64,000 nt of DNA from Chiloscyllium plagiosum (lineage: Eukaryota). The stretch covers positions 903,805-967,804 of the forward strand of contig NC_057756.1 of assembly GCF_004010195.1 (NCBI RefSeq). Reading direction: 5' to 3'. How positions within the stretch are numbered: the stretch's first letter is position 1; each line of letters starts with the position of its first letter. Of this stretch, positions 1 to 61,013 are shown piece by piece. The notes below the pieces were generated by a model, which saw only the letters and a program-made list of their open reading frames with translations, searched no databases and had not been told where the DNA came from. The translations under genes and the position numbers were made by a program.

Positions 1-94
1 GTAATCACTCAAATGTCTGTCAATGCAGAATTGGGAGGATCTCCACCAATTCCAGAAAATTATTCGTCAAACAAAGGGAACACAGATCAAAGAA

Positions 95-2975: not shown

Positions 2976-4227
2976 TCCCTCAGCAATCCTACTCAATATT
3001 ACTATTTACTTTACTTTTACGTTCATGTAATGTACGATTGTATATGCTAATATGCGTTGCACCTACCTGGATTCATTCTGGGATTAATTTGTAGGATCAC
3101 ACAGATCTCTAGTCATCAGCATTCTCTTTTGTGTCCACTATTCAAAGTTTCTACTTTTATGTTTTGGACCCATCCATTAATTGGGATAATTATATCATTA
3201 GTCATTTTATTTGGCTGACTACTTTAAGTAGTTGTCATTATCAATTCCACAATTTATTGCAACGATTTCAACCTTTAACTTTTAAATGTCCATTTAAAAT
3301 TGAGATATGATTGCAAATTTTCTGTCCTCGCCAAAGGACATAAACATACATAATGTAACATTCGTGATGATGATTATCTAGTTTGCTCATGGGGTACACA
3401 TTTTCAATGCGCTGAAGAAACAAATCTGAAAGGGGGCGGATTGTCATAAGTGTTAGCTATGAACTGATTTTCATTCACCATTGAAACCTAACGTTATTAG
3501 AGTTGCACCTGCTCCTCAGCGCCAATGATCTGACATTGTCATGGTTATTCATATCACCAGAAGACCCAGAACCAGCTATAATAGCATTTAATCCTTACAA
3601 ATAACCTTGAAACACAGACCCGAGCTTCCTACTGGCTTCTTGTCTCTGGATTTATCGCCACACAGAAAATACCTTGACATTTCTTCTCATTCAATCCATG
3701 ATATGAGCATTTTACATTGAAGTCATTAGTGCTTCATGGCCTCATTTATAACTATTACTCCGCTGCCAATGATTCCGTGTAATGCTTTCTTTCTCACAAT
3801 TTTCCAGACAGAGTTGCTATGTCAGAGCGACTTAAATTTTTTTTACATTTCTCGAGGTATTTTAATGCTGCAATTCAACAATTGAATTTGCTGGTAAAAT
3901 TTCAATGTTAGCCTTGATTATGGACATGAATCATTTTGACTGTAACCCTACCACTTCTTTTCTACTTATTTTATCAAATGCAAATGTGTTAAACTTTCCA
4001 CAAATCAAATTACACTGCATTGATCACTTGTCCTGTCATTGTTATTACCAATCGTATTTATACAGGTGAGCTTATGAATTATTTTCTTAACACTAGTTGT
4101 AATGACGTTTCTGCGAATAAGATAGCCACCTGGAAATATATCAATTGCGTTAACATTGAAATTCTGATTATGGAATTATTAGCATTATTAGTACTGTTAT
4201 TACATGTTTGTTTCATTTTATTCAAAG

Positions 4228-4254
4228 AGGAAAAGCTAAATGGGGAATTAAAAG
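4228..4254 (+). CDS. 27-nt micro-exon (EEKLNGELK)
   Basis: tttcattttattcaaag|AGGAAAAGCTAAATGGGGAATTAAAAG|gtattt; phase 1-1. Confidence 0.8.
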
Positions 4255-7200
4255 GTATTTGCAACAAACTGTCACAGATATTAGATCTTCTTTTATATGT
4301 TAATGATGCTCGAAAATGTCAAATCTTGAAGTGTTTTCGTTATTTTATTTCTGAGTCTTGTTTAGAAGGAAATGTGTGGCACGAGATCTGCCTGTCTATA
4401 AAGGGAAGTTGCAGTTCATGATACAAAAACAGAAGTAACTGGGGAATCTGAACAGCACATGTGGGAAAATAACAGGTTAACGTTTTGAATGCAGTGACCT
4501 CCTTCAGAAATGACAAGGGTAACTGGATTTAAAACATTAACATTATTCTCTGTTCCCAGATGCCACCATACAGGCAGTATTTATCCATCATTTTCTGTTT
4601 TTGCCTCAGATCTTCAGCCTTCGGACATCTTTTTTTCAAATAATTGCAGTTCATGATTTTGCTCTGGCTCTTCAATTTACGTTCATGGCTATGTTAGCTC
4701 TGGCATTTGCCTGAATTTCAGACAGGAAAACCCATCTTCGTTGGCACATGTTTCATAATTATTGATATTTTCTCTCTTATCTTCAAATATATTCATACGC
4801 TTATATCAAAGTTAATAGTTTGTCAAATATAGAAACTGTACATGAGGAAGAAGCCATGTTGTAAAACATTTATTTCTGTTTTTGCATTAACAATGTTGGA
4901 GATGAATTTATTTTCAGTTCATGGTAAGACAAAGCTTACACCTCTCCAAAGATTCTTTCTACATTTGTGAACAACCTTGATATGAAGAACTCTAACGTTC
5001 AAAATGCAGGTTTTATCTTTAACTAGCGAGAACAATGTACTGGTAACAAATCTAAAAAGAAATAATGAGATTAGTTTCTGAGATATACATACATCGCATA
5101 ATTGAATGCATTTCAAGTTATCTGCATGCTTCCTGAAGGTCCAAGGGATGTGTGATAACATTTTCAAATATATTAGATTATGGCAAATCTTGTCATGATG
5201 CACATTAAGGGGTAGTACCTGGCTGATAAGCAGAGTTAACTAGTGTTCTTTGGATGAAATTTCCGACATCTAAAATATTGAAAAAAAAGTGTTTTTAATC
5301 AAATAGTTTTATATTTGTTACATATCCTATTATTATGAGTTGCAGATATCCCACCATTGAATATAATTAAACATGAAACAGACACAGTTTGCTTTAAAGA
5401 AGGAAAAAATAGTGTTATAGAGAGCGAATTGTAAAATGGAGTTGAGGTTGAAGATTTTCCTTCATTACAGTGAGTGTCACAGCTCTGACAAAGAACGTTT
5501 AATTCTTCTTCTGTCCTTATTTACTATACTGCCAATTGTTTTTGTTTTATATTTGACAATTTAACCAGTGATTAAAACATTGGTTTTAATGGTTTGAAGT
5601 TAGACTGTCTTGAAACTGTTTCTTTTAAAAAAAGAAGTCTTGTATGAGTTGCATTCAATTCCCAGAAATAGCAACTTATGAATATACTGATGACCTTTGT
5701 CCATTATAGCAAAATAATGCTTCGTATCACTTCCCTTTTGCTGTACCTTCAAAGCTACTAACAACCCGACAAGGAACTATGCAGAGGAAGAAAGTAAGAT
5801 GCGGTAAAAAAAAAGACTGTGACCACCATTTCAAGTGCTTCTCTTAAGAAGAGCTTGCTACAGTAAAACCTCTATCATAAAAACATAGCAAAAATGTAAT
5901 TTGTGCCAAAGCCAATCCCTTTGCAAGTTGCAAATTTTCACCTGTTTGCTGTTTTGAATACTGAAGGTCTCAAAGATATATCAAGTCGATCTCAGTATTT
6001 CACAGAAACATAACAACTTTTATCGGCTAGCCTGCTCAGAATACATTAAGATTTTTGCCTGGGCACTAGTTTTTTTCCCCTTGTTTTTAAACCATAATAT
6101 AAAGTGTTTTGTTGCAGATGAAATTCTACTACAGAAACTACTTGACAAACTAACAATTTATTTAAACATCCCAGTTAAAATGCAACAAAATAACCAAGAA
6201 CGAATACCTTAATTCTACTGGAAAACTTAACAGAATATTAGATGCACTAACTTATACTGATAAACTGTTCCAATATGATATCATCCCATAAACAAACCTG
6301 TTAGCAAAAAGACAAATGCCAACAAATGCCAACATCCACTTTTCTCATATACAATTCAGCAGCAGCTAGAGAGAAAAATGAACCAAGTGAAAACTCAGAG
6401 AGGACCAACAAGGAAATATTTGGTGCAACCTCCAGCCCTGTTGAGACTCCATGAGCAGATGGTAAATCTAAATGCGATAAAACTATACAAAACACGAAAT
6501 TCTGATCCGTGAGAACTGGCCACACCTGTTCACTCTACTTCTGTTATTTCAACGTTTTAACAAAAACCGTAAACTCTTTACTACAGAATGGTTGCGATCT
6601 TTTATACCATCTTTCTCTTAAAAGAACCAAAGGGCAAAATAAATTTCAACGCTACAACATCGTTACAATATTGTCAAGACTAAAACATTCATCGTTGTTT
6701 GTATGGCTGATGATTATTCTTACATTTGTATTTTTTTCAAGTCCTTCATCTCCTCAAACTCTCTTCACTGGACTTTAAACAATTCTTGGTGTCAGTACTT
6801 CCATGATTGGCTGCAGTGCTTCCTATTCTATAAATTGAAAACGTGAAATTTACTCACTATTTATCCATGCATCTCTCTTCTGTTCAAAACTGTTTACAAA
6901 CAACATTTTTATTAACGTTAATTCATCACTTAATTGAAACGTTGGTAGTTGTTTTTAAAAAAAATCCTTTCACGTTTTTTTGTTCTAATACTTTCCAAAT
7001 ATAATACGGCACGCAATAATTCAATCTCGATGTGCTTTCGTTTCAGAAATAGAAAAACTGAAAGGTCAACTTGAAGACGTAGGTGCGTACAAATGATAGA
7101 AATTCGTGTTTCAGCTAGGTTTCTTGTGGCAGCCTATTTTTTTTTGAGTATCCGTTTTTCTTGAATACGTTGTATAGGTGGTTCTCCTGTTTTCCGAAGT

Positions 7201-10200
7201 TTGTGCTGCAGTGTGTGGTGGCTCGTTGGAATAGTGTTCTGAGACAGCTTCTTTTGTGTGTATTGTGTGTGTTACACTGACCAAATACTTAACTGCACAA
7301 GGAACCATCCCAAAACACGCAAACGAAGCTATATCAGAAAACTATTCCAACGAGCCACCACACACTGCAGCACAGACAAACTTCGGAAAACAGAGGAGAA
7401 CCACCTATACAACGTATTCAAGAAGAACGGATACTCAAAAAATACAGTCCGCAGATTCCTCAAGAACAAACCACGACAAGCAGACCAAACACAGCCAGAA
7501 ATCCTAACCACCTTATCATACATCAAAGAAGTTTCAGAAATGACAGCCAGACTACTAAGACCCTTCGGAATCCGAGTAGCACACAAACCGACCAACACTC
7601 TCAAACAAACGTAAAAGACTCAGTACAACCCATGGACAAAACCAATGTCGTCTACAAAATTCCACGCAAGGACTGCCACAAAGATTACGTAGGACAAAAA
7701 GGAAGAAAGTTAGCCACCAGGATACACGAACACCAGCCAGCCACAAAAAGACACGACCTTCTCTCCCTCATAGCCCTACACATGGATGAAAAAAAAGCAC
7801 CAATTCGACTGGGACAACACATCTATCCTGGGACAGGCTAAGCAAAGACATAGCAGAGAATTCCTAGAGGCCTGGCACTCCAACCACAACGCCATAAACA
7901 AACACATAGATCTAGATGCCATCTATCAACCCCTCAGAAAACGAACAGGAAATGACATCACCACAATCCCAGGAACACCATCCATGACAAAAAAAAAACA
8001 TATAAATTGAAAGCAGGAGACAACAGCTTCGCTTCACTTGGAGGTCGCCACTGATGATGTTACCTAGCCAGGTAAAGAAACGTCTGGGTATCAAACCTAC
8101 AGCTCTGCGAGCAATCCTACACCCAAAACCTCAACCTGAGCTACAAACCTTCACATATTTGATGTGTGTTCGTGGAACAAAATAAGTTGTGCAACTTCAA
8201 TCAACGACAACTCCACATATTTTCATATAACTTCTCTTAAAATGATCTATTATTGCATATTATGGAGGCATTGTTATCTTGTTACACCATTTTTCATATT
8301 GGCAGTTGTGACTTTACATTTTGCTGAGGATAGGTTCAGTGGGCGGTGCCAGATGCGGGTGGTGTGGTGAGGGCTGAGAACTCAGACCATTATTTAGTTG
8401 GAATCTTTATTGTCCAGTTGGATTGCTGCGACTTTGCCCAATGGCAGTGCCTTCGGAGTCATCGTTATCTAGAGCCTCAAATTGCCCTCTACGTCAGTTA
8501 AAATATATTGGCATTTACCTTCAAACTCTGAACGAGAGTTGTGGCTGTGGGTACCAAATACATAATTGTTTTTTTTCATGTAGAATAGCTCCTTGAACTA
8601 CGAATGCACTTGTTCATGGGTAAAAAAAGAAGTGTGCACAGAGACTTCGGTTGGGACACTGTTATGACTTGGCTCTGTTGACCAGGAACTGCTTCTGTTC
8701 TTAGTAATTCTCATGCACATATCGGCTCCCTTTCAATATGAAGAACCATTGTATTGTAAAATTTCTTTCTGCATCTTGTGCGGCCATCAGTTCACAGTGT
8801 GAGAGATTAAGTTCCGATGCAGCAAGCAGGATATTTTCACTATGCCACCAGACCTCCAAACACATCTCTCGAATATGAAGAGAACAAAATCGGATTNNNN
8901 NNNNNNNNNNNNNNNNNNNNNNNNNNNNNNNNNNNNNNNNNNNNNNNNNNNNNNNNNNNNNNNNNNNNNNNNNNNNNNNNNNNNNNNNNNNNNNNNNNNN
9001 NNNNNNNNNNNNNNNNNNNNNNNNNNNNNNNNNNNNNNNNNNNNNNNNNNNNNNNNNNNNNNNNNNNNNNNNNNNNNNNNNNNNNNNNNNNNNNNNNNNN
9101 NNNNNNNNNNNNNNNNNNNNNNNNNNNNNNNNNNNNNNNNNNNNNNNNNNNNNNNNNNNNNNNNNNNNNNNNNNNNNNNNNNNNNNNNNNNNNNNNNNNN
9201 NNNNNNNNNNNNNNNNNNNNNNNNNNNNNNNNNNNNNNNNNNNNNNNNNNNNNNNNNNNNNNNNNNNNNNNNNNNNNNNNNNNNNNNNNNNNNNNNNNNN
9301 NNNNNNNNNNNNNNNNNNNNNNNNNNNNNNNNNNNNNNNNNNNNNNNNNNNNNNNNNNNNNNNNNNNNNNNNNNNNNNNNNNNNNNNNNNNNNNNNAGAT
9401 TTAATCAGGAGGCGAGACCCGCATGGATGTAATTGAATTTTATTGGAAACGCCTTGAAATTCTTCTAAATTTGAGCGAGAAGAGGGATGGGTGAAACATA
9501 TCAGCAATGCTAACCTCCAATGCAAGAATACGGTTATGAATATTCTTCATCTTCAAAACATAATTTTGTCAGCTGAGCCTAGAGATACTTACTCAACAAA
9601 AATACTCATGCTGATGACAGAAACTACCTGGACTCTCAGCAACTTTGCATTGAATCAAGTCGAACCGGTTACAAATTGAAATAATTTCAAAGTTATGTCA
9701 TGCTTGTATGAAATCCTGCTGCAAATTAAAATGCTTGTGCAGGATGAATCGTTATATTCAATAAACATTCAATGAGAAGGAGATAAATGCTGGTGCAAAT
9801 TGGGATAACGTAAGTAGCAAACCAATTTGAACTATGATGACGAAAAGAAATTAAACAGAAGCTTGATCCTTTACACAGTTTCTAAAATACCAAAACATTC
9901 CAGCACAAAACAAAGGTTGTGCAGCATACAAACATTGTCTGATACCCAGGAAGCAATGCAAATCAAAAATTGCCAGCTGATGAAGATTTTCATGGAAGAA
10001 AATCAAAACATCGCTCATGCCTCTAACCCAGTCTTCACGTGCATTGGGGCATTCATCACCACTGCTGAACTTAATAATAATCATCCTGGTTGTTATGAAA
10101 ATAAAAATATCATAGGCTGGCAATGACTGAAAAGTACTTTGAATGAAGAAACTGTTCATAATATTCATGAAAATAATGTTCAAAAAGAATATGAAGGCAG

Positions 10201-13200
10201 AAAGAGAATAGTTTTGCCATGATTGCCTCAGCATTAAATTATTCTAATTACACCTAGTTGTTGGAAAGATAATAAGCATACTCTGAGTATTGCACTTATT
10301 ATGTAGACTAAACAGGAATTTCTAAAAGTGAAGTTATCCAGGACCAATAACATAGAAACCATAACATGAGCAAGAAGGAGTAAAAACTTTTCATTAAATT
10401 GTGTTGGAGGCCGAACTGAATGAATACTTATGAAAGTATTTGAGAAAGAGATAAATACCATTTGATTTAATTTATCTATGAGCCACAAACAAAATGAAAT
10501 AACATTGTGTTTAGAATCTCAATGTGAAATGAGGAAGCATGTTATGTTCGAAAAAAGTTTAACAATAAAATAAAAAGAGAAACAATTCTTTATGATCTAT
10601 TCTATCAACGTGCACTGTTGTAATGATTACCAGTTTGTGAAACTTGGTTGATATGTCGACATAGTGCTACAATTCTTGGTCATTCAACTCTTTGTCTATT
10701 GTTTCATTGACACTTCTCTTGCCATACACTGAATAAATCACAGGAACTCGCTGTTTTGAAAAAGAAAACCTCATAGCATTTTTGTTCATGTTCTTTATCA
10801 ATTTATGTTTATGTCCAATCTGTGTGCAGTTTTCTGACGTTAGAAATGTCTTTTTGTTTCTTTTGCTTACAATATCGCAATCCTTTGGCATGCTAAATTC
10901 CCCTTCAAATTTCCACGTAATAAATTATTTCTCGAGGGAGAATAATCCTAGCTCGCCAACCACTTTCCATAATCAGGATGATCGAACACAGTAACGTTGA
11001 AATTGAATCCTACTATATTCTTCCTAAGTTTGAATACATTGCATCAGTATGGCACCCATAACTGAGTGACAGCTACGTTTTCCGTGGACGGTTTACACTT
11101 TCAGCGAAGGGGTTTATGGTTTTTTGAGTGATCATACTCAAAGATAAATGCTCTAACTAATTTAATAAATTTTTGCTATGAAGTGAATGTGTCATGATGT
11201 ACAGATACAAATTTAGGGAATGAGTCAATAATGATGCAATTGTAAATTGTACATAATAATTAAATTACTGGAGAAACCCTGCCGATTTTGCAGGATCTGT
11301 GAAGAAAAATCAACGTTAAAGTTTCGAATTTACTGAGTCTTCTTCTGAACAATTGATTGTTTATGATCTTGGCACTCGTTCCTTTATATTATTGTGATGT
11401 AATTGTATACTGGAAAGTTTCAAGGAGCGGAATGGATCATTTTGTTTTACATCCTCGTCGTAATGCACTTTTATTTTTGTTATTTCATTTGACAGATATG
11501 GATAAACTGAAAAAGAACTGCAAAGAAATTGGTCAGTAGAATGGTATTTCGTGAATTTTAAAACCGTATTTTCAACATCTTACTGTATTCATAAATATAA
11601 GTTTCAAAGTCAATCGCGGTTGGAACTCCTACAACGAAAATTAAAAAGAAATGTAACAAATAGGGAAATGTGTGTTAATTGTGCAGACACAGGTGTTTAC
11701 CATGGAAATTCAGGCGAAACTGTGAAGTGTGAAATTTTGTTTAACTATAGATTTCAGGACAAACCTGTTGATTCTGATTTGACAGCATTTTACCATAGGA
11801 ATTTTAGTGCAGGTTTCACAACCCATCACTTCAATTATTTCGGTTGTCACATTACTACGTGACTGAAGTAGTTGCAAACTTGGGTAGCAATGTCCTCCAC
11901 CTCTCCTTCAGAGAAAGAGATAGATGTTGATTTTTGATGAAACTGCTGTAAGTTATTTCATCACAAAACATTTTTGAAACATCTATAGTAATCTATTATG
12001 ATTATATTGCACGCTAAGGAGTCTGGAGATAATTCAGAGAAAGAGATAGATGTTGATTTTTGATGAAACTGCTGTAAGTTATTTCATCACGAGACTAGGT
12101 AATATTCATTTGATTTGCAGACACAAAATTCATTGCTGCAATGATCGAACCAGTTAAAGCAACATAATTCACCGAATGTTTTTACAAGTAATTACATTAA
12201 TTGCATGGCAAAGTTTAAGCCTCAGTAAAATCAGCCACCTGGGTGCTACTGGAATTATTATTTTCTTGGAACTGTACATATTCCAGAAAAATCCAAATGT
12301 GTGCTGAAGAGTAACAAACGTGAACGATTTCCTGCTCCTTTGTCATTCTTTAATCAATGAATAATATTTCTATCTCATAGTAAAACTCTAATAGTTAAGT
12401 TCTGATCTATTGTGCAAATGCCACTAAATCCTTGCCACACACTGCCCAACGGTTTTCCACAAAACTGAAAATTGTGAAATGCATATGTGTTGATCTGATA
12501 CACAGTACTTGGGGAATACAAATATACATCTGTATGCTTTTTTGTCGAAATGCCAGCAGTGAATTGAGCCTTCAGATTCCGAATCACCCGCTTAAATCTC
12601 TCTGCTACTCCTCTTAAGACACAATTGAAAACATATTGTTTTGTCGAAGCATTTGGCATTTTAGACAAATATTTCTTTATCAAGTCTGTAACAGTATCTT
12701 AATAAAAGAAGCACAATTGTTAGTTTTTTATACAGTCTCAGAATATGAATATCTGCGATTTATGTTCCTTCTGTATTTTTTTTTTCGAATCATTGTAATA
12801 ATAGAAGTGGAGATCATACAGAAAAATGAAGGTAAAGACGATCATGGAGTTTATATTCATAATCTTTCAGTTCGAACGATATCTGAATTCAACCAACACG
12901 TGGACTTCCAATACATATCTATTTTAGTAATATAATACTGATATCATTTACACACACACACAAACGCACACACAATATATATGATATATATATTTATATA
13001 TAAGCTTCTTGTTCTGTGATCCTGATTCTTTTTATTGCTTACAGAAATAGAGAAATTGAAAAATCGTATTACAACTTGTGGTGAGTGGATTTAATTGATT
13101 CGGATTCTGAATTCACTGGCAAAACATTTTTGAAACATCTATAGTAATCTATTATGATTATATTGCACGCTAAGGAGTCTGGAGATAATTCAAAAGAGTG

Positions 13201-49200: not shown

Positions 49201-52200
49201 ATGCCAGGCTTACCTGTCTATCATTCACTTGCATTTCCTTGCCATATTTCCTAAATAATGGCACCACATTAGCTAAACACCAGCCTTCAAGCACTTCCCC
49301 AGTAGCTATTGATGGTGCAAATATCTCACCAAGGGTCACAGCAATCACTTCCTTAGCTAACCATAGAGTGTTAGGGTTCGCCTGATCAGGTCACGAGGTT
49401 TGATCCACCTTTATGCCTTTTAAGACGTCCAGCACCTTCTCCTCTGTAATATGGACATTTTTCAAGATGTTGTTATTTATTTTAGTTTTGGCAAAACATT
49501 TTCGAATGCATTTTTGTCTGAAGGCTTAGCATTCTTGTTCGTTACTTAAAACAAATTAAAATATAGAGAGAAACTGTGCAAAATTTGCCAATTTTAATCT
49601 AGCCATCATATTTGAGCATTGCTTCATTTTTTTTGCCGACCAAGTATGTGAATAACTCTGAGATCCAACAATGAGCTGCATTCCTCCACAACGATATACC
49701 AGTCTCAGTTACAATATGCTTGTCATCATTCAAGTATGAGCCTTTATTATAATATTGCATTGTCATGATATTCAGGGCAACTTTTAATATGAGAATAACT
49801 AATGAGGTTAAACTTCTTTCATACAATGATTATTGCAGTGCATTAATCCATTTGTGTCCCTGTTAGAACAACAAATGAACAAGAAAGACAGAGGTAATGA
49901 TATTCAGCTATGCCGTAATTCTTCACTTCTTAACAGTGGATAATCTGAAGTAATCTAAGGATTTGGAGCGTATGACAAAATATTCCATCCAACGTTGATA
50001 TGGTTATTAAGTAAATGCAATTGTAAGAGAAACCTCGGTCATCTGCCTTTCAAAGGAGAATTGAATTTAATGTTAAATCAAAATTGAGAGATGATTTGAA
50101 ATGACCATTATGAGACGTTTAACTCAAAACTGCATATGAAGGAAATAGTTGAACTGGTGAAAAGTTGGTTGTCATAGTGTATTTCTTTTTAAGTTTATTG
50201 CCAAAAAAAAACAAGATCATATCCATTCCTGTTTTCTTCTGTGGAATATACCACCAAAACCGAGATACTGAGACAATCAGTAATAACATTTGAAGTGTAT
50301 GCAGCTTACCTTGTAGAAGTAGAAATGGAAGTCAGAAACAAATCATTTAATGTGTTTTTCTATTATTCTGTTAATTCGTTTTGGAAGTAATCCAATAAAC
50401 AACTCTGTATCAACATTTTTTCTGCGGTGCGCGAGGTGTTTTATTTTCTCTGTATCTATCCTGTGGAATGCACAGATAGAAGGCACATTTTCATTAACCT
50501 GCAGTTAACATTAACCCTCTGTTTTGTTCTACATCCACCGTTAGAACTGGAAAAGTTAAGGAAGAAGCTTCAAGATTGTGGTGAGAATGGATTTGCTTTA
50601 AAGCATGCTGCTTCTTTTTTCGTCTTGAACTCTAAATATTATTGTAATTATTTTTGGGCTAATTCATCAATTTCTTCTTGCCTGAAGTATAATGATGCGA
50701 GAAATATGAAACTGCTCTAGTCAGGAGCCAGTGCCAATCTAGTCTGCAATGTAAAGTTTCAATCCATTTAAAGTTCTATTAAAGTGATCTGAAGTTAATG
50801 TCTGGTGCCAAAATGACACCAATTCACCAACGGTTTTGCTTCAGGCTATAGACATCCCAGATGAACTGAATACAAAACTGCTGACATTAGCGGATGAAAA
50901 TGTGAATTTAAACGTTAAAAAGCATTAGATATATAAGTTCAATTTAAAAAGATAGATTTCACAGACTTCTCTCCCACTTCCGTGATAGTTGATCTAATTG
51001 TGGTTTTTCAGAAAATTTGAAAATTTCACAAGTTGATCGATTATATGAGGAGAAAGTGAGGTCTGCAGATGCTGGAGATCAGAGCTGGAAATGTGTTGCT
51101 GGAAAAGCGCAGCAGGTCAGGCAGCATCCAGGGAACAGGAGAATCGACGTTTCGGGCATAAGAAGGGCTTATGCCCGAAACGTCGATTCTCCTGTTCCCT
51201 GGATGCTGCCTGACCTGCTGCGCTTTTCCAGCAACACATTTCCAGATCGATTATATGAGTCAGCTTTACTATTCAGAAGGGGACACAATGTATCTTGTTC
51301 TGGCAATCAGTCATATAAAGTAAAATGATAAATTTTGCAAAACTAACACGTTGTAAAATCAATCATAATTCAGCTAACTTTCACTAAACTTTATTAATCT
51401 GCTGTCGCCTTCTTTGTCCAATGGTGTTCCTCCTTAAGCAATTGGACAATGTTTTTTGATTTTTGATTTCATGTCACGCAAATGCCTTTTCCCAGCCTAC
51501 CTCGATAATATCTTTAAGCTACATAGTTAACCAAGGTACCTACTTCAAAATCACTTGAGAGCAGTTTAATTGTGAAGCAACTGGAAATCTTCTGTTTAGT
51601 TCTGCAGTTAACAAATATGAAATGTTATCTACAAGAGTTTCTGATCCACAGCCTCTCCTTTACTGATGACAATGTTCATTCAAACATGTCAAATTGACCA
51701 ATATGTTGTTATATAAGCTGACGTGGCTCGTAGTTAAATTATATTTACTACTTCCTCCTGTGGACCTTGAATACTTAATTTTATTTAAGAAAAACTATGT
51801 AGCCATAAGTTTTATTGGAATTGACTTCAGTATCAATAATATCCCTCTTAGAACAGAAATTAATTTCAGATGAGAAAGGTAAGTGTGTGCATCAATTTAA
51901 TTCTTTAACTGATTTGAAACCCTCAGAATCTTCCAAAACTGGATGGATAAGCAGTTGAAATGTCATATAATTAAAGGCTAAGGACCACGTGCTGCAAAAT
52001 GGGTCTGGTGTGGATTATTCTCCCTCCTTATTGGAACTTGCTTTCTGATCAAATATTCATTTACAGTTTCCAGGTTTTTTCTTGTTTGCGCCATAAAACT
52101 GCATATTATAACTATAGCGGATAATCCATTAGATTGATCTGAAGCTTATGCACCAAAGAAGAATAGATTACTTCGATATTTGTCGCAATTATTACTCATG

Positions 52201-58200: not shown

Positions 58201-61013
58201 AACGATGAGGCAAGGTATGGGGAAATGCTGGCTAAGACCATGTTGGATGAAACCTCCTACTCAGGTGGCTCACACCTACATTTGGCAAAGGGATTGGTTT
58301 GGTAAAAGCAGGAAGTTTTCTTATAAAGTCAATACATTTCAAAGTTACTACGGGCTGCGGGTGAACATTGCTCATTGAAACATTAGATAACCGAAGCTCC
58401 AAAAAGAAAGGACAGGACAATCCAAAAGTGTTAAGAATTAGAGATCATTCATTTTGTCCTCAGTTTCATGCGAGAATTTTTTTTTTTAGAAAAAATGAGT
58501 TAAAGCTTAACATTTATTTGGAGAACGTTGAGTTGATGAAGAATACAAAGATTTGAACTGTAAAAGTTATTTCTTTCTTAATTAGCTCAGTTGATTTTTT
58601 TTTATTTACCCTAACTATATTGACATCATAGACGATGCTTACATGGATCTGAAAAAGAATATATTTAGTGCAGTTATTCATAAGAGGTTAATTAACAATG
58701 CACTTCGGGATTTTCGCAGAGACCGGAAGTTGTAGCTTATCAACCATATTAATATTGTGATCTTTGGAGAGTAATTCATTTCCTGAATATACCACCGTTC
58801 CATCAATTCACGTGGGCAAGATGCCTGGAGCTCTCTTTAAAAGCATTGAGGGTGCCCCAATCAAATAATTCTCCAGTTGTTGACTCATGGGGTTGGCGAT
58901 GCAGAGACTGCTTAGATTTAAGTAAACTCGTGGATTTAGACAAAGATGGACCCCACTTGCGAAAGTTTCACCCTATTTATAATTACAGATTAACAGTCTG
59001 TAATTTAGCTGTTTGGTCATGATCAAGTTAAGAGACCAAGACAGTTCAAATTGCTTTGCCCAGTGCATTGTCAGTGTTTCTTAAATCTTCCTAATCTAAC
59101 TCAATGTCAATGCCTTCATTGCATCAGAAAGCGAATCCCTGAAAAAGAAGATTCAACTTTTAGGTAAGGAAATGTTTGGAACTTCTTTGGTCTATGTTAC
59201 AAACCAATTAACGTAAATGGATTAAAAAAGGAAATGTCACTTCTAAAAGCTTGGTTTGTGAATGTCATTCTTGGAGATTTTCTGGTAGATCTTATTTGGA
59301 AAGTAACAAATGGTGTACAAATGTTATAATAACAGAATACTATTGAAATTCTGTGCCAACATCAGAAGAGAAACTGAAAGAGAAAGAGAAAGGTAAATGA
59401 AAAGATGCAGTTGCATTCCGTGCTCTCTTCCATCTGAATTTCGACGATTGCTTAAACACTCCTGTAATTGTGCTTTAGAAATTAAAGCTAAAGTCTCAGA
59501 TGATGGTGAGTAGGAATTAATTATGAAGGAAAACATGTACTGACACCGATGGTAATCACAATTCAACTGAAAATTAAACATCATGCTGGAAGTTTCCACA
59601 CTTCAAGAATATTGAAAGTGAAAGAATGCTTTGCGGTGTGCCTCACTAAAAGCTTCCTGGCTCTGATAAAGTAATGATTACTCTTTTTTGGTCAGATTCA
59701 TTAATCCACAAGTATTCAGGAGCGATTCTTCGAAGTTACACCTGATGAAATGTTAACCACAACAAAGAGTCTAACGTTGGAGCAAATAACTGCAGATGCT
59801 AGAATTTGTACCGAAAGCAAAAATAAATACAAGAGTTCACAGCGGGGCAGGCAGCATCCTTCGAGAGAGAGCAAGCTGACGTTTTGAGTCTGGGTGACTC
59901 TTCATCAGAGTTGAACTGAAGTATGGAGGAGGCAGCACTTATGCAATACTGGTGAGGGAATTGGAGTGTTGGGGGAGAAAGGATGTTAACAGTTCAGATT
60001 TAGTGATCGAAATGTAAGAAGGGCAGAACAACGGTGTCTCTAACTGCCAGACTGGCAAGAATATGCCGTCCCACTGGAGTGGGGGAAGGGAAGAGGGGCA
60101 TGGTTACAGAGAATGTAACAAGCAAAGCTGAAGGAAGGGGAACGAATGTTTTCAGAATCTGAAGGCGTTCAACTCAATGTTTAGACCAGAAGGTTGTAAA
60201 GTGTTTTGCTGGAGCATTTCAAGAAGAGACAAGTTGCATGAGCGCAGAACACTGTATTACATTGACTGGCATTGGGACGATCACAGTTATGCTTGCATAC
60301 AGACTGGAGGTGTTCTGCAAACGGGTCATCCAGTATGTGTTTCGTTTCTGCAATGAAAGTCGGATGATTGGGTGCAGCGAATCCAATACAAAAATTGGAG
60401 AAGGTGTAGTTGAAATGGTGCATCACCCAGAAACATTGTTTGGGGCATTGGATTGTGAGCAGGGAGGATGTGAAAGAGCAGTTGTTGTACCTTCTGCGAT
60501 TATATGAGAAGATGCTGTGGGAAGGGGTGGGATTGTTGGTCGAGGAGTTGACACCTAATGTTAAAGTATTATCCACAAGGTTGTATTTCTACAGGTTGTA
60601 GGAATCACTGACTCCTTCCCTCCAAAGTTAATCTTTCCTACTGACTGTATAGCAGTTCCTTAGTAGTGCAATATATTTTACATCTGAATTCTTGATCCCA
60701 AGGCAGGTCAAATGAACTAACATTTTTTTTATGTCAGAGGCCAGTGTATGAAAGCGTGATCCATACTTGACAATATGTATGTTACAATGAATTGTTGCAT
60801 TTATGTAAAGGTTGGATCAATAAAGTATGGATAATACAGTAGAAAGATAAAAGGAACGGAAGGTCTGTGTGGAAACAACGGTATATCAGCAAATGTTTTC
60901 CTAATTTTTGCTTCTATGGTTGTTGTTGACATGTCGGAATGTGAAGTTCACCTCAACGTATTATATTTCACTTTGTCAATTTGCAGGAGAGGCGCTACGT
61001 GAAAAGAACTCAG
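4228..61013 (+). CDS. Internal portion of an unidentified multi-exon gene: 22 alternating 27/36-nt phase-1 micro-exons encoding a long coiled coil (about 231 aa; 5' and 3' ends outside the window)
   Basis: Every exon is flanked by AG (usually after a pyrimidine-rich tract) and GT. Lengths are only 27 or 36 nt. The spliced frame is stop-free: EEKLNGELK/EIEKLKGQLEDV/DMDKLKKNCKEI/EVEIIQKNE/EIEKLKNRITTC/EEDLTKKQK/EILKMKGAYSEC/EEKIKAKQK/EINTLKTDLETS/EQKFTNKQK/SIDKLKDTLNEL/ETKLNQKAT/ECENLKENVESK/DQALAKKDK/ELEKQKKTNIDC/EERLSTEAK/EVQKMKTKYNDQ/EQQMNKKDR/ELEKLRKKLQDC/EQKLISDEK/ESESLKKKIQLL/GEALREKNS. The first residue assumes an upstream G. Confidence 0.9.
4420..4625. repeat. Decayed Penelope-derived hairpin repeat
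   Basis: Imperfect inverted arms (aaaaacagaa...ttaacgtttt / aaaacattaa...ttctgttttt), similar to 36775-36925. Confidence 0.5.
7047..7082 (+). CDS. 36-nt micro-exon (EIEKLKGQLEDV)
   Basis: gctttcgtttcag|AAATAGAAAAACTGAAAGGTCAACTTGAAGACGTAG|gtgcgt. Confidence 0.9.
7111..8155 (+). mobile_element. Penelope-like element: GIY-YIG 3' part with an inverted 5' duplication
   Basis: ORF fragments TNVVYKIPRKDCHKDYVGQKGRKLATRIHEH (GIY-YIG) and HQFDWDNTSILG...REFLEAWHS; about 7141-7255 is the reverse complement of about 7322-7443. Confidence 0.9.
8048..8087 (+). ncRNA. Minimal hammerhead ribozyme motif in the Penelope 3' terminal region
   Basis: cca-CTGATGA-tgttacct agcc aggtaaa-GAAAC-GTC-tgg: conserved core, stem II ttacct/aggtaa, stem I cca/tgg. 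Confidence 0.7.
8897..9396. other. Assembly gap (500 N)
   Basis: N run. Confidence 1.
10515..10541 (+). other. Candidate 27-nt exon with a non-canonical donor (ESQCEMRKH); decayed exon or sequence error
   Basis: ttgtgtttag|AATCTCAATGTGAAATGAGGAAGCATG|ttatgt. It lies in the only interval where a 27-nt exon is missing, and the donor reads TT instead of GT. Confidence 0.4.
11496..11531 (+). CDS. 36-nt micro-exon (DMDKLKKNCKEI)
   Basis: tttcatttgacag|ATATGGATAAACTGAAAAAGAACTGCAAAGAAATTG|gtcagt. Confidence 0.88.
11907..12090 (+). repeat. 58-nt perfect direct repeat flanking a segment identical to 13120-13192
   Basis: 11907-11964 = 12033-12090; 11964-12036 = 13120-13192. Confidence 0.9.
12805..12831 (+). 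CDS. 27-nt micro-exon (EVEIIQKNE)
   Basis: ttgtaataatag|AAGTGGAGATCATACAGAAAAATGAAG|gtaaag; weaker acceptor, with a T-tract a little upstream; fits the alternation. Confidence 0.72.
13045..13080 (+). CDS. 36-nt micro-exon (EIEKLKNRITTC)
   Basis: ttttattgcttacag|AAATAGAGAAATTGAAAAATCGTATTACAACTTGTG|gtgagt. Confidence 0.92.
13478..13665 (+). mobile_element. Decayed HE1-like SINE fragment
   Basis: ggattgtccatgctaaattg...gtcagtgtagacccgatgggcagaatggcc resembles the other SINE copies. Confidence 0.55.
14257..14880. mobile_element. LTR-like interspersed repeat
   Basis: Ends ...ccataaca; its end matches, in reverse complement, the fragment tgttatggaccaggccagacccctcaaaacatttc at about 40761-40818. 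Confidence 0.5.
14881..15330 (-). mobile_element. CR1-clade LINE 3' end
   Basis: Tail cataacataggagtggaagtaaggccattcggcccatcgag followed by ORF2 C-terminal-like sequence on the minus strand. Confidence 0.75.
16022..16048 (+). CDS. 27-nt micro-exon (EEDLTKKQK)
   Basis: ttttctttatttttag|AGGAAGACCTGACCAAGAAACAGAAGG|gtatgt. Confidence 0.9.
17906..17941 (+). CDS. 36-nt micro-exon (EILKMKGAYSEC)
   Basis: tttgtttatctatag|AAATACTGAAAATGAAAGGTGCATACTCCGAATGTG|gtgagt. Confidence 0.9.
18520..20212 (+). mobile_element. 5'-truncated CR1 LINE (RT to 3' end), interrupted by a SINE
   Basis: ORF 18797-19141 SGVLQGSVLCPLLFIMYINDVD...KFADETKV (RT motifs); continues in ORF 19431-19679. Confidence 0.92.
19138..19440 (-). 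mobile_element. HE1-like / V-SINE nested in CR1
   Basis: Same core as 689-972. Confidence 0.85.
20829..20855 (+). CDS. 27-nt micro-exon (EEKIKAKQK)
   Basis: ccattgcttacag|AGGAAAAGATAAAGGCTAAGCAGAAAG|gtgagt. Confidence 0.9.
20896..22287. mobile_element. Penelope-like element: two GIY-YIG/3' segments in inverted orientation
   Basis: Minus ORF 21004-21513 AIYKIPCKNCNRHYIAQIGNKLATRIHEH, with a homologous + copy at about 21470-22287. A possible 11-nt TSD, ataaaagaaaa, lies at 20885-20895 and 22288-22298. A CTGATGA...GAAAC motif lies at about 22214-22244. Confidence 0.9.
23072..23278. repeat. Penelope-derived hairpin repeat
   Basis: Inverted arms; same family as 51050-51245. Confidence 0.75.
23672..23707 (+). 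CDS. 36-nt micro-exon (EINTLKTDLETS)
   Basis: ctcctttacttgacag|AAATAAATACACTGAAAACCGATTTAGAAACTTCTG|gtaagt. Confidence 0.92.
23805..24135 (-). mobile_element. HE1-like SINE
   Basis: ggaggaaacccaggcagaaacagggagaatatgcaaactccacag core. Confidence 0.8.
25000..25330 (-). mobile_element. HE1-like SINE
   Basis: gaggaaacccacacagacacggggagaatatgccaactctacag core. Confidence 0.8.
25382..25408 (+). CDS. 27-nt micro-exon (EQKFTNKQK)
   Basis: ttattgtttgttacag|AACAAAAGTTTACCAACAAACAGAAGT|gtaagt; the only exon ending in T. Confidence 0.9.
25640..25810. repeat. Second family of Penelope-derived hairpin repeat
   Basis: Arms ttatagtacaacaggttta...tttgtcag / ctgacaaa...taaacctattggactataa around a gctagctagc centre; decayed hammerhead-like ctgacaaaggagcagcactccgaaagct on the minus strand. 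Confidence 0.6.
26600..26635 (+). CDS. 36-nt micro-exon (SIDKLKDTLNEL)
   Basis: ttcttattattttacag|CTATCGATAAGCTGAAAGACACTCTTAATGAACTAG|gtgggt. Confidence 0.9.
29295..29321 (+). CDS. 27-nt micro-exon (ETKLNQKAT)
   Basis: tgtgtttcatttag|AAACAAAGTTAAATCAGAAGGCTACTG|gtaagt. Confidence 0.9.
29487..32060 (-). mobile_element. CR1 LINE with internal deletions (ORF2 pieces plus an ORF1-like remnant)
   Basis: Minus ORFs 29622-30026, 29987-30304, 30217-30450 (SKFADETKIGG) and 30845-31165; catagagt tail at about 29487. Confidence 0.92.
32302..32337 (+). CDS. 36-nt micro-exon (ECENLKENVESK)
   Basis: ttgcttactccccag|AATGCGAAAACTTAAAGGAAAATGTTGAATCTAAAG|gtacac. Confidence 0.85.
32695..33192. repeat. Penelope-derived inverted-repeat element
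   Basis: Arms agagtcaaaaagtgtgg...cttcatca / ctgatgaag...cacactttttgactct. Confidence 0.7.
34813..34839 (+). CDS. 27-nt micro-exon (DQALAKKDK)
   Basis: tttaattgtcctag|ACCAAGCATTAGCAAAGAAAGATAAGG|gtgaga. Confidence 0.83.
35295..36110. mobile_element. Penelope-derived element: hairpin plus internal fragment plus terminal repeat
   Basis: Hairpin at about 35300-35497 containing ctgatgaagggcttttacccgtaacgtc; a third terminal copy at about 35985-36110. Confidence 0.7.
36775..36925. repeat. Short Penelope-derived repeat fragment
   Basis: aacaaaaacagaaatagctggaaac...cagagttaccatttcgggtccagtgaccc, then cctgctgaacttttcccagctattt. Confidence 0.5.
38239..38274 (+). CDS. 36-nt micro-exon (ELEKQKKTNIDC)
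   Basis: ctcgttgcgccatcag|AATTAGAGAAACAGAAAAAAACTAATATTGACTGTG|gtgagt. Confidence 0.9.
39210..39860 (-). mobile_element. CR1 LINE 3' fragment
   Basis: Minus ORFs 39484-39717 (LERIQKRVT...GLSYEEKL...RGDLIEVYK) and 39642-39854. Confidence 0.85.
40313..40339 (+). CDS. 27-nt micro-exon (EERLSTEAK)
   Basis: catatattttgcag|AAGAAAGACTGAGCACAGAAGCAAAAG|gtgact. Confidence 0.87.
40820..41960. mobile_element. Old, heavily decayed CR1-like fragments (+ then -)
   Basis: Recognisable remnants such as gttaagtgagtggg...gttatacacttc...ctggagtattg...ttttggtccc; no long ORF. Confidence 0.5.
43600..43635 (+). CDS. 36-nt micro-exon (EVQKMKTKYNDQ)
   Basis: tctttgttctgtag|AAGTTCAGAAAATGAAAACCAAATACAATGATCAAG|gtgagt. 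Confidence 0.92.
44330..47395 (+). mobile_element. Near-complete CR1 LINE ORF2 (endonuclease + RT), disrupted by frameshifts and stops; 12-N gap at 44559-44570
   Basis: ORFs 45840-46268 (ANVVPLFKK...PGNYKPVSLTSVV...QHGFVRGKSCLTNL), 46228-46776 (SGVSQGSVLGP...SKFADNTKIGG) and 46806-47051; ctctatgactct tail. Confidence 0.95.
47520..47850 (+). mobile_element. HE1-like SINE with a tRNA-derived head
   Basis: ggcacagtggctaagtgg...ctgctgcctcacagc...ggttcgaatccagcc (A/B-box-like) followed by the V-SINE core. Confidence 0.8.
47925..49470 (-). mobile_element. CR1 LINE fragment
   Basis: Minus ORFs 47896-48144 (VWNELLDEVVESGTIATFKRQLD), 48586-48810 and 49148-49348 (LANVVPLFRK). Confidence 0.9.
49867..49893 (+). 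CDS. 27-nt micro-exon (EQQMNKKDR)
   Basis: tttgtgtccctgttag|AACAACAAATGAACAAGAAAGACAGAG|gtaatg. Confidence 0.87.
50545..50580 (+). CDS. 36-nt micro-exon (ELEKLRKKLQDC)
   Basis: ctacatccaccgttag|AACTGGAAAAGTTAAGGAAGAAGCTTCAAGATTGTG|gtgaga. Confidence 0.92.
51050..51245. mobile_element. Young non-autonomous Penelope-derived hairpin insertion with a 15-nt TSD
   Basis: Perfect 78-bp inverted repeat 51085-51162 / 51168-51245; direct repeat gatcgattatatgag at 51035-51049 and 51245-51259. Confidence 0.9.
51852..51878 (+). CDS. 27-nt micro-exon (EQKLISDEK)
   Basis: atccctcttag|AACAGAAATTAATTTCAGATGAGAAAG|gtaagt. Confidence 0.9.
53150..53890 (+). mobile_element. CR1 LINE 3' fragment
   Basis: EHRRLRGELKDVYKIMRG in ORF 53378-53629; 3' end similar to the other CR1 copies. 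Confidence 0.85.
56996..57340 (+). mobile_element. HE1-like SINE
   Basis: gcacggtcactcagtggttagcact...cctcacagtgccagg...ggagtttgcacattttcccc. Confidence 0.8.
59128..59163 (+). CDS. 36-nt micro-exon (ESESLKKKIQLL)
   Basis: ccttcattgcatcag|AAAGCGAATCCCTGAAAAAGAAGATTCAACTTTTAG|gtaagg. Confidence 0.9.
59780..60545 (-). mobile_element. Decayed Penelope-like fragment (GIY-YIG end plus terminal region)
   Basis: Minus ORF 60181-60576 IAETKHILDDPFAEHLQSV; terminal tgcagatgct...gacgttttgagt...cttcatcag, as in the hairpin families. Confidence 0.65.
60987..61013 (+). CDS. 27-nt micro-exon (GEALREKNS)
   Basis: ctttgtcaatttgcag|GAGAGGCGCTACGTGAAAAGAACTCAG|gtaagt. Confidence 0.88.

Follow-up and report, generated by a model that had tools for sequence, protein, structure and literature searches.

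In the chicken BG genes, a long coiled-coil tail is encoded by 27-37 exons of 21 nucleotides (nt) and a few of 18 or 24 nt, in a number that varies between genes, according to the sections of two accounts on which this comparison draws (PMC5938342, PMC4046983). Each junction codon of these tail exons takes one base from the previous exon and two from the next (PMC5938342). The same sections describe a BG tail that consists of heptad exons followed by a 3′ untranslated region exon, while mammalian butyrophilin (BTN) tails typically end in a B30.2 domain (PMC5938342, PMC4046983), the butyrophilins having few heptad micro-exons and then a single B30.2 exon (PMC4046983). Here we describe a locus of comparable design in the shark Chiloscyllium plagiosum. 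The window, as the whole stretch of 64,000 nt under analysis is called below, covers positions 903,805-967,804 of the plus strand of contig NC_057756.1 (C47) in the 3.56-Gb assembly GCF_004010195.1, with runs of N at 8897-9396 and 44559-44570. It contains 22 micro-exons of 27 or 36 nt, which are probably real coding exons in the middle of one very large plus-strand gene that ends in a B30.2 domain and has a minimum span of C47:697,491-995,036, about 298 kb.

The first-pass annotation of the window had likened the array to butyrophilin and BG genes, and the comparison is apt as to design, that is, tiny phase-1 heptad exons and a terminal B30.2 exon. As in the BG genes, to the extent that the cited sections describe them, many tiny exons of the same phase make up a long coiled-coil tail, and three intact 21-nt exons also lie near the end of this array. 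Unlike in those descriptions, the unit here is a pair of 36 and 27 nt that spells three heptads, instead of one 21-nt heptad exon, and there are at least ~74 exons, with introns of 0.2-7 kb in the window, a span of ~300 kb and a B30.2 end. In addition, no immunoglobulin (Ig) V exon was found, either down to -170 kb (negative coordinates lie upstream of the window) or in the relatives. The anatomy of the exons, the coding-type constraint on them, the extent of the array, its terminal B30.2 exon, the paralogues and the relatives are directly supported by the observations set out below.

The 22 micro-exons lie on the plus strand, 11 of them 27 nt and 11 of them 36 nt long, each between AG and GT. 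Spliced together, they make up 693 nt whose phase-1 frame (230 codons) is free of stops, the other two frames containing many. The first-pass description of 22 AG/GT exons in equal numbers, all of phase 1-1 and with a stop-free frame of 693 nt, is thus borne out exon by exon. Its intron range of 213-7249 nt was right at the upper end, while the shortest intron is of 202 nt (59164-59365). The claim of strict 36/27 alternation except in one interval has to be given up, as the alternation is interrupted at three places (7047 to 11496, 11496 to 13045 and 59366 to 60987). The first of these breaks spans the assembly gap of 500 N at 8897-9396, and the second contains a plausible 23rd exon of 27 nt at 12805-12831; a further 27-nt candidate lies at 59479-59505, and the true number of exons in the window is probably 23-24. 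The exons are rich in purines (71% A+G, against 49% for the whole window). Their 3′ base is G in 21 of the 22 and their 5′ base A in 20, most starting with AA or AG, and for this reason nearly every codon split by a junction encodes Glu.

AG and GT dinucleotides are common, and Lys/Glu/Asn-rich frames are easily found in an A-rich genome, so the pattern might be imagined as a product of chance. Bare AG-N27/36-GT sites indeed number 421 on the plus and 435 on the minus strand of the window, and a crude composition filter separates the strands weakly (17 phase-1 sites on the plus strand, against 4-10 in the other five frame and strand combinations). The 22 plus-strand exons are conspicuous among these sites for K/E/L-rich phase-1 translations and good splice signals, and profiles tell the two strands apart. 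Each exon was scored with a leave-one-out position weight matrix (PWM) made from the other 10 exons of its class, extending over 15 nt upstream, the exon and 6 nt downstream, and both strands of the window were scored with it. Eighteen of the 22 exons outscore every other position on either strand, and the other four (32302, 34813, 59128 and 60987) are equalled by one or two plus-strand positions each; on the minus strand, none of the 22 is equalled anywhere. When the full matrices were run over 314 kb, 56 positions reached at least 8 bits on the plus strand versus 9 on the minus strand, and only one of the 56 (37881) has an in-frame stop, an open frame being no criterion of that scan.

Constraint on the protein is visible in the same comparison. 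Exons are 0.51-0.52 identical to one another at the nucleotide level, while the intron flanks past the splice signals stay at 0.27-0.31, with 0.26 expected by chance. Identity follows the order second, first, third codon position in both size classes (0.59/0.52/0.42 and 0.66/0.51/0.38), as would be expected of ancient duplicates held by selection on the protein. Together with the strand asymmetry of 74 to 4 predicted exons, the lack of matches past the B30.2 exon and the concentration of exact exon patterns on one 10.7-Mb contig (all described below), these controls refute an origin by chance as far as sequence statistics reach, and we give that explanation next to no credence.

The array is likewise no product of the assembly or of a mobile element. 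Contigs from four public DNA runs (X1-X4) cover exons together with their introns over window positions 13000-32400, which argues that the arrangement is no assembly artefact. Among 40 listed differences (80 in total), none falls in the nine exons of that interval, where ~0.6 would be expected, so that the count carries no information. Self-comparison of the window gave no exon-to-exon DNA match at an E-value of 1e-3, and the interval 50400-52000, which holds two exons, has no second copy in the genome except for an interspersed repeat, so the exons do not belong to a mobile element.

The exons and associated features are given below by window position, with their leave-one-out score (PWM). 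The exon score quoted for some of them was computed for all AG...GT intervals of 15-99 nt that are multiples of 3 and open in phase 1, from splice-site matrices and residue composition derived from the 22 exons, with a cut-off of 16.

4228-4254, plus strand: 27-nt micro-exon EKLNGELK, phase 1-1, AG/GT and open; PWM 18.4, unmatched on both strands
7047-7082, plus strand: 36-nt micro-exon IEKLKGQLEDV; PWM 36.8; an exact match in the genome-wide pattern search
8897-9396, no strand: 500-N assembly gap that separates two 36-nt exons and may hide a missing 27-nt exon
11496-11531, plus strand: 36-nt micro-exon MDKLKKNCKEI; PWM 32.1
12805-12831, plus strand: candidate 23rd exon of 27 nt, VEIIQKNE, which restores the alternation; AG/GT and open; PWM 11.1; exon score 15.1 (cut-off 16)
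13045-13080, plus strand: 36-nt micro-exon IEKLKNRITTC; PWM 38.1; an exact match in the genome-wide pattern search
16022-16048, plus strand: 27-nt micro-exon EDLTKKQK; PWM 36.5; within a contiguous DNA contig of run X1
17906-17941, plus strand: 36-nt micro-exon ILKMKGAYSEC; PWM 22.5
20829-20855, plus strand: 27-nt micro-exon EKIKAKQK; PWM 22.0
23672-23707, plus strand: 36-nt micro-exon INTLKTDLETS; PWM 31.2
25382-25408, plus strand: 27-nt micro-exon QKFTNKQK, the sole one of the 22 to end in T and not G; PWM 29.0
26600-26635, plus strand: 36-nt micro-exon IDKLKDTLNEL; PWM 33.8
29295-29321, plus strand: 27-nt micro-exon TKLNQKAT; PWM 20.2
32302-32337, plus strand: 36-nt micro-exon CENLKENVESK, the weakest of the 36-nt class; PWM 6.5, equalled by two other plus-strand positions; exon score 22.0
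34813-34839, plus strand: 27-nt micro-exon QALAKKDK; PWM 10.3, equalled by one other plus-strand position
38239-38274, plus strand: 36-nt micro-exon LEKQKKTNIDC; PWM 31.7
40313-40339, plus strand: 27-nt micro-exon ERLSTEAK; PWM 23.1
43600-43635, plus strand: 36-nt micro-exon VQKMKTKYNDQ; PWM 22.1
49867-49893, plus strand: 27-nt micro-exon QQMNKKDR; PWM 23.7
50545-50580, plus strand: 36-nt micro-exon LEKLRKKLQDC; PWM 21.5; single copy in the genome
51852-51878, plus strand: 27-nt micro-exon QKLISDEK; PWM 26.3; single copy in the genome
54177-54212, plus strand: probable dead copy of a 36-nt exon, LKKLSTKVKLR, inside the 7249-nt intron; AG acceptor, AT in place of the GT donor; PWM 14.9
59128-59163, plus strand: 36-nt micro-exon SESLKKKIQLL; PWM 13.3, equalled by one other plus-strand position
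59366-59392, plus strand: 27-nt micro-exon EKLKEKEK; PWM 26.4; an exact match in the genome-wide pattern search
59479-59505, plus strand: additional or alternative 27-nt candidate IKAKVSDD, 86 nt past the preceding exon and outside the 22; AG/GT and open; exon score 20.9
60987-61013, plus strand: 27-nt micro-exon EALREKNS; PWM 9.5, equalled by one other plus-strand position; exon score 24.6

The array extends far beyond the window on both sides. In the 334 kb that were read (170 kb upstream, the window and 100 kb downstream), non-overlapping predicted exons number 74 on the plus strand versus 4 on the minus strand, running from window coordinate -168,990 to +88,180. With length left free, 36 of the 74 are of 27 nt and 27 are of 36 nt (63 in total), and the whole set sums to 2184 nt. 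All 104 raw matches fall within 261 kb, before the B30.2 exon has ended; the following 72.8 kb contain none. Gaps between predicted exons outside the window reach ~11.6 kb, and ~1% of the locus is coding. Upstream, the 36-nt exons mostly follow L-x-x-C-Q-x-x-L-K-x-L (LTNCQ, LNNCQ, LIDCQ, LSTCQ, LIECQ, LSDCQ, LEKCQ), and in several modules a 27-nt exon lies within 0.3-1 kb after the 36-nt exon. Exact exon patterns add members at C47:712,486, 732,505 and 697,491, the last of which places the beginning of the array at least 206 kb before the window.

Each 36+27 pair encodes 21 residues, which is three heptads. The consensus of the 21-mer is E-[ILMV]-E-K-L-K-x-x-[LIY]-x-[ED]-[CL]-E-[EQ]-K-[LI]-x-x-K-x-K, with hydrophobic residues at positions 2, 5, 9, 12 and 16, which correspond to a and d in three heptads; Lys usually takes the sixth core position (19), and Cys occupies core position 12 in 4 of 10 window modules. 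Over the joined peptide, the hydrophobic period has a power of 3.6 at 3.5 residues and at most 1.2 at the 8 other periods tested. The heptad register would thus run continuously across modules, as expected of a coiled coil. This period and the 21-residue pairs lend support to the earlier proposal of a coiled coil made by duplication of a 36+27 module, and the pairing of a 36-nt with a following 27-nt exon recurs both upstream and in a paralogue, in line with a two-exon unit of duplication. Compared with 151 collected proteins, the joined window peptide found a single match, to a catfish protein and biased by composition.

The end of the array was reached downstream. Among 118 plus-strand open reading frames (ORFs), L021:6618-7232 (window coordinates 90,618-91,232) matches Pfam SPRY (PF00622) with an E-value of 1.7e-16 and 60.8 bits (cut-off 26.3). 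The domain occupies a single terminal exon, L021:6715-7232, followed by a stop, and its acceptor ttttgcag|TG leaves two bases for a split codon and is thus of phase 1, matching the micro-exons. Extending the window in search of domain exons, as the first-pass annotation had advised, hence recovered a B30.2 exon in the fitting splice phase. Its best match of solved structure is the B30.2 domain of BTN3A1 (E 1.5e-22, ORF residues 33-193), so that profile and structural similarity both place it in the B30.2 (PRY-SPRY) family; the PRY part is visible through the PDB alignment only, with no separate Pfam match. Just before it, a 36-nt exon at 89,897 (HSDWRDVKRNK) resembles the residues that precede B30.2 in a skate model (ASDWDTIKNNK). 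Farther upstream, four tandem units of ~1 kb that are 78-84% identical occupy L021:1963-5790 (85,963-89,790), and every one of them has a 21-nt exon-like block, x-S-K/Q-E-K-E/V-S. The 21-nt exons are intact at 86,016, 87,015 and 88,180, and the copy at 89,160 has a CT donor. These units are a recent duplication of exon plus intron, unlike the ancient modules of the window.

The B30.2 exon alone does not place the gene in the BTN family, because the structures of TRIM58, pyrin and TRIM21 are near-equal matches (E 1e-21 to 1e-20). As in the mammalian butyrophilins BTN3A1 and BTN2A1, in so far as the cited section describes them, heptad micro-exons are followed by one B30.2 exon, which in BTN3A1 is the best structural match. 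Unlike the locus described here, the butyrophilins have Ig ectodomains and few heptads, and the coil of this gene would be two orders of magnitude longer by exon count. Of the hallmarks of butyrophilin and BG genes, tiny phase-1 heptad exons and a single terminal B30.2 exon are present here, and no Ig or transmembrane exon was found in the sequence read. TRIM proteins share with this gene a coiled coil followed by a C-terminal B30.2, and relatives of the gene carry TRIM-like automatic names. On the other hand, the RING and B-box that open a TRIM protein were found neither within 170 kb upstream nor in the relatives, and TRIM coils are short and encoded by a few ordinary exons.

Other domains were sought on both sides. 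No Ig-type Pfam match occurs among 128 plus-strand ORFs of at least 80 amino acids (aa) between window coordinates -150,000 and -1, no Ig, RING, B-box or lectin domain among 93 ORFs of at least 75 aa in the window and between -170 and -150 kb, and no Lectin_C, Ig or other extracellular domain among 118 plus-strand ORFs of at least 60 aa at window coordinates 64,001-124,000. The upstream scan reaches -170 kb, and the array goes at least 36 kb farther. Of the Ig and transmembrane exons that the first-pass annotation had suggested looking for in the flanks, none was found within 170 kb upstream, and the relatives are without Ig as well. What the upstream and window ORFs do contain is limited to reverse-transcriptase and integrase fragments of intronic transposons.

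Inside the introns, RVT_1 fragments lie at window positions 45840-46773 and 18791-19138, both on the plus strand; integrase fragments (L018:6876-7717), further reverse-transcriptase fragments (L020:6886-7272 and L021:1373-1618) and a Myb/SANT-like ORF (L023:3097-3714) were also recorded. High-copy repeats fill much of the introns (14294-15587, 18176-20116, 20764-25939 and 29175-32400), with depth sums of 10^4-10^5 versus 5-40 in unique parts in all four DNA runs. GC skew is -0.28 to -0.30 at window positions 1-4000 and 28001-32000, +0.31 at 44001-48000 and ~0 elsewhere; these stretches probably reflect oriented repeats, and 44001-48000 overlaps a reverse-transcriptase fragment. A palindromic repeat of ~200 bp at 51040-51250 has 87 matching pieces in the genome, ~40 of them copies 92-100% identical over ~200 bp, on many contigs. 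Rfam, at its gathering thresholds, recognises no hammerhead or other family in the window.

Relatives of the B30.2 exon were found in other cartilaginous fishes. A HMMER search against 1.84 billion representatives gave 2697 matches, the closest single-domain ones being 41-51% identical, and the closest named ones are all chondrichthyan, from skate, catshark, elephant shark and numbfish. Their automatic names include TRIM69-like (skate, 295 aa), TRIM39-like (catshark) and zinc-binding protein A33-like (numbfish). In the congener Chiloscyllium punctatum, the B30.2 exon is matched at 98% identity by a 178-aa "hypothetical protein chiPu_0007878", which begins five residues before it; this is the only near-identical protein in a collection clustered at 90% identity, and the micro-exon array is unannotated there. 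The earlier suggestion of an elasmobranch gene is in keeping with this match. No longer protein matched the B30.2 ORF at E ≤ 0.001 among 471 candidates.

By architecture, the closest relatives are two models of one elephant-shark (Callorhinchus milii) gene, XP_042192744.1 ("nuclear-pore anchor-like", 1697 aa) and the older XP_007898089.1 ("myosin-2 heavy chain-like", 1722 aa), both automatic and named from coiled-coil composition. Each starts with Met, two residues and a hydrophobic stretch of 13-16 residues, continues as a coil of ~1450 aa with repeated 12-residue L-x-x-C-Q blocks, like those of the upstream 36-nt exons at the shark locus, and ends in B30.2. The Callorhinchus B30.2 is 41% identical to the terminal exon over the matched part, and has the same ...ISIV end; this C-terminus is common to the B30.2 described here and to proteins P0051, P0152 and P0007, and the expression L..C[QKE] occurs 8 times in P0051. 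By Pfam, the Callorhinchus and skate models have SPRY only, with no Ig, zf-RING or B-box. Searched against proteins of 933-2970 aa, the Callorhinchus B30.2 region found only the two Callorhinchus models, and the Callorhinchus protein, searched against the C. plagiosum genome, matched only B30.2 exons and unrelated repeats. By B30.2 similarity and by its blocks of 9 and 12 residues, the predicted gene fits a chondrichthyan group, of our own making, with a hydrophobic N-terminus, a long coil and a B30.2 domain.

A shorter catshark model, Scyliorhinus canicula XP_038668997.1 (358 aa), combines B30.2 with a block LAILRQKY, like the 27-nt candidate LEILRQKY at 77,361 (weak donor, exon score 9.0). 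None of the relatives resembles its first ~135 residues, which look derived from a transposon, and the record probably represents a similar gene whose model was truncated or given the wrong start.

A 21-residue repeat also characterises the stalk of CD23 (FCER2), and this likeness might suggest that the array encodes the extracellular stalk of a CD23-like type II lectin receptor or of some other surface protein whose head is an Ig or lectin domain. The recurring core Cys, at position 12 in the window and in the L-x-x-C-Q motif upstream, could form inter-chain disulfides outside the cell, and the N-terminal hydrophobic stretch of the relatives could be a signal peptide. The domain that follows the array in phase is B30.2 and not a C-type lectin, each 21-residue unit is split over two exons, no lectin, Ig or extracellular domain appears among the 118 downstream and 128+93 upstream and window ORFs, and SPRY is all that the Callorhinchus and skate models show. 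We regard such a stalk as most improbable.

The two Callorhinchus models also bear on how many of the exons a transcript would use. Their alignment has 2 mismatches and 13 block differences, among them 9 pure indels (four of 9 aa and five of 12 aa) and one exchange of 9 for 12. On the simplest reading, the elephant-shark gene would also be built of 27- and 36-nt exons, of which the models take different subsets. It is possible, if doubtful, that the exons at the shark locus are real and mostly cassette exons, so that mRNAs carry subsets and the array is a reservoir of rod lengths and sequences instead of one 100-nm rod. All exons are symmetrical in phase 1, and any subset would stay in frame and mostly in heptad register; even so, skipping a single exon of 27 or 36 nt shifts the register by 2 or 5 positions. 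The differences between the Callorhinchus models by whole blocks of 9 and 12 residues fit this view, although the two records may be successive automatic models and not observed isoforms. Short models from skate (295 aa) and catshark (358 aa) would suggest subsets, but those from catshark and bamboo shark look like annotation failures, the latter with five residues before the B30.2 exon. In chicken, the section consulted reports that splicing varies extensively in the 21-nt exon tails of BG transcripts (PMC5938342).

The same contig carries related genes. B30.2 exons 58% and 43% identical to the terminal exon lie at C47:4,577,465 (plus strand) and C47:1,296,632 (minus strand). Three exact exon patterns were searched genome-wide, with 20, 6 and 9 matches, against 12, 2 and 6 for reversed-pattern controls. 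C47 measures 10.7 Mb, or 0.3% of the genome, and holds 12 of the 20, 3 of the 6 and 8 of the 9, each of them preceding, on the same strand, one of the three B30.2 exons. Per pattern, 6, 2 and 6 of these belong to the gene described here and 5, 1 and 2 to the 4.58-Mb gene; the minus-strand 1.30-Mb gene has 1, located 148 kb upstream. With one mismatch allowed the patterns discriminate poorly (309 matches versus 784 for the control). The paralogues span C47:4,329,139-4,578,016 (plus strand, ~250 kb) and C47:1,296,632-1,445,171 (minus strand, at least 148 kb). The same module occurs in the 4.58-Mb gene, where a 27-nt E-K-L exon (4,384,574) lies 1.9 kb after a 36-nt L-x-x-C-Q exon (4,382,608). Scanning the genome by exon pattern, another check proposed at first pass, has thus shown the same exon types at two paralogues on C47.

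Elsewhere, contig C37 holds more than 100 B30.2-like exons, ~26-39% identical to the terminal exon and mostly open. They form a dense cluster, chiefly at ~27.5-34.4 Mb and in smaller groups at 9.1-9.5, 14.3-18.9 and 20.7-25.7 Mb, which looks like a large TRIM/BTN-like expansion. The minus strand of C37 has matches to the exon patterns at 21.59 and 22.07 Mb, where another micro-exon gene may lie.

Several observations weigh against one large gene with a functional coil. Because the exons of the window itself served to train the exon score, the count outside the window is an estimate, with ~5% false positives by the minus-strand rate. The I/L-E-K-L-K...C module of the window is not recognisable in the Callorhinchus models, and the joined window peptide has no significant match to the Callorhinchus coil; what speaks for homology to those models is therefore the B30.2 exon, together with the L-x-x-C-Q motif found upstream and the grammar of the exons. 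A single transcription unit is assumed, and internal promoters or several genes in series are possible. The N-terminal hydrophobic stretch of 13-16 residues may be an anchor or a cleaved signal, which would allow either topology. No RNA run is listed among the sequencing runs that match the B30.2 exon and its 3′ flank. The four matching runs (X1-X4) are contiguous across introns at even low depth over 13000-32400, as genomic DNA is; splice joints at exon borders are not listed in them over that interval, and the listed joints lie in high-copy repeats. Finally, the exon copies at 54177 (AT donor) and 89160 (CT donor) are dead, and because of them part of the array may be decaying.

Taken further, the lack of a listed RNA run, the dead copies and the fact that the bamboo-shark annotation has the B30.2 exon only could mean that the array is a relic, its coiled-coil region unexpressed or decaying and only the B30.2 end, if anything, in use. 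This is very unlikely in view of the constraint on the exons. AG, GT and an open frame are kept in all 22; third codon positions are the least conserved, and introns are at chance-level identity while exons are not. A single in-frame stop (37881) occurs among the 56 plus-strand PWM matches of at least 8 bits, and two paralogues whose B30.2 exons are 43-58% identical keep the same exon types.

We therefore return to the reading of one very large coding gene, for which a single transcript, the N-terminus, oligomerisation, topology and function are what we infer. Its body would consist of at least ~74 phase 1-1 micro-exons, mostly in 36+27 pairs, encoding one continuous alpha-helical coiled-coil rod, in which phase-1 symmetry and the Glu junction codons would keep the heptad register unbroken. 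At a rise of ~0.15 nm per residue, the at least ~730 residues predicted from the exons in 334 kb would form a rod in the order of 100 nm. The rod would end with three 21-nt heptad exons, one 36-nt exon and the single phase-1 PRY-SPRY exon. Judging from the elephant-shark and skate relatives, the N-terminus would be a short hydrophobic segment, either anchor or signal peptide, and Ig, RING and B-box domains would be lacking. A Lys/Arg-rich stretch after the hydrophobic segment of the Callorhinchus models would favour a cytosolic coil and B30.2, and an extracellular rod linked by disulfides would agree with the recurrent core cysteines. Self-association through the coil is most likely, and B30.2 ligand-binding heads would then be held far from the membrane anchor. 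The purine-rich exons probably contain their own splicing enhancers, which would render 27-nt exons recognisable between introns of several kb. The cassette-like exons would allow evolution, and possibly alternative splicing, to alter the length of the rod without breaking frame or register; exon duplication and loss could both change rod length, and both have left traces at this locus, in the tandem units of 1 kb and in the dead copies at 54,177 and 89,160.

Heptad micro-exon tails with B30.2 are known in kind; the family, with its 36+27 unit, is so far undescribed in the literature searched, though the automatic elephant-shark models imply the same exon sizes. The first-pass statement that the module belongs to no described gene accordingly holds for the open-access full text searched, in which no description of such a gene, of the 36+27 module or of the elephant-shark models was found, and falls short with respect to those models. 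More broadly, and tentatively, it may be proposed that cartilaginous fishes carry an undescribed family of giant genes (~150-300 kb, three of them on C47), each with roughly a hundred 27/36-nt cassette exons that encode a rod of at least 100 nm with a B30.2 sensor, that the heptad-micro-exon and B30.2 cassette of butyrophilin and BG genes descends from, or shares its origin with, this Ig-less form, and that duplication, loss and alternative splicing of exons diversify innate recognition by tuning the length and surface of the rod. If true, the array would be among the longest runs of consecutive micro-exons with kb-scale introns in any gene, and a test case for micro-exon definition. If it is transcribed as predicted, it would represent an extreme case missed by standard annotation, of which the closest annotated species has the last exon only, and a natural system for studying how 27-nt exons are recognised between multi-kb introns. 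To be carried on a rod of ~100 nm would be unusual for B30.2, a recognition domain otherwise known from TRIM, pyrin and butyrophilin proteins. Under the same condition, the design of heptad micro-exons plus B30.2 would exist in cartilaginous fishes with no visible Ig and with another repeat unit, which would bear on the origin of butyrophilin tails.

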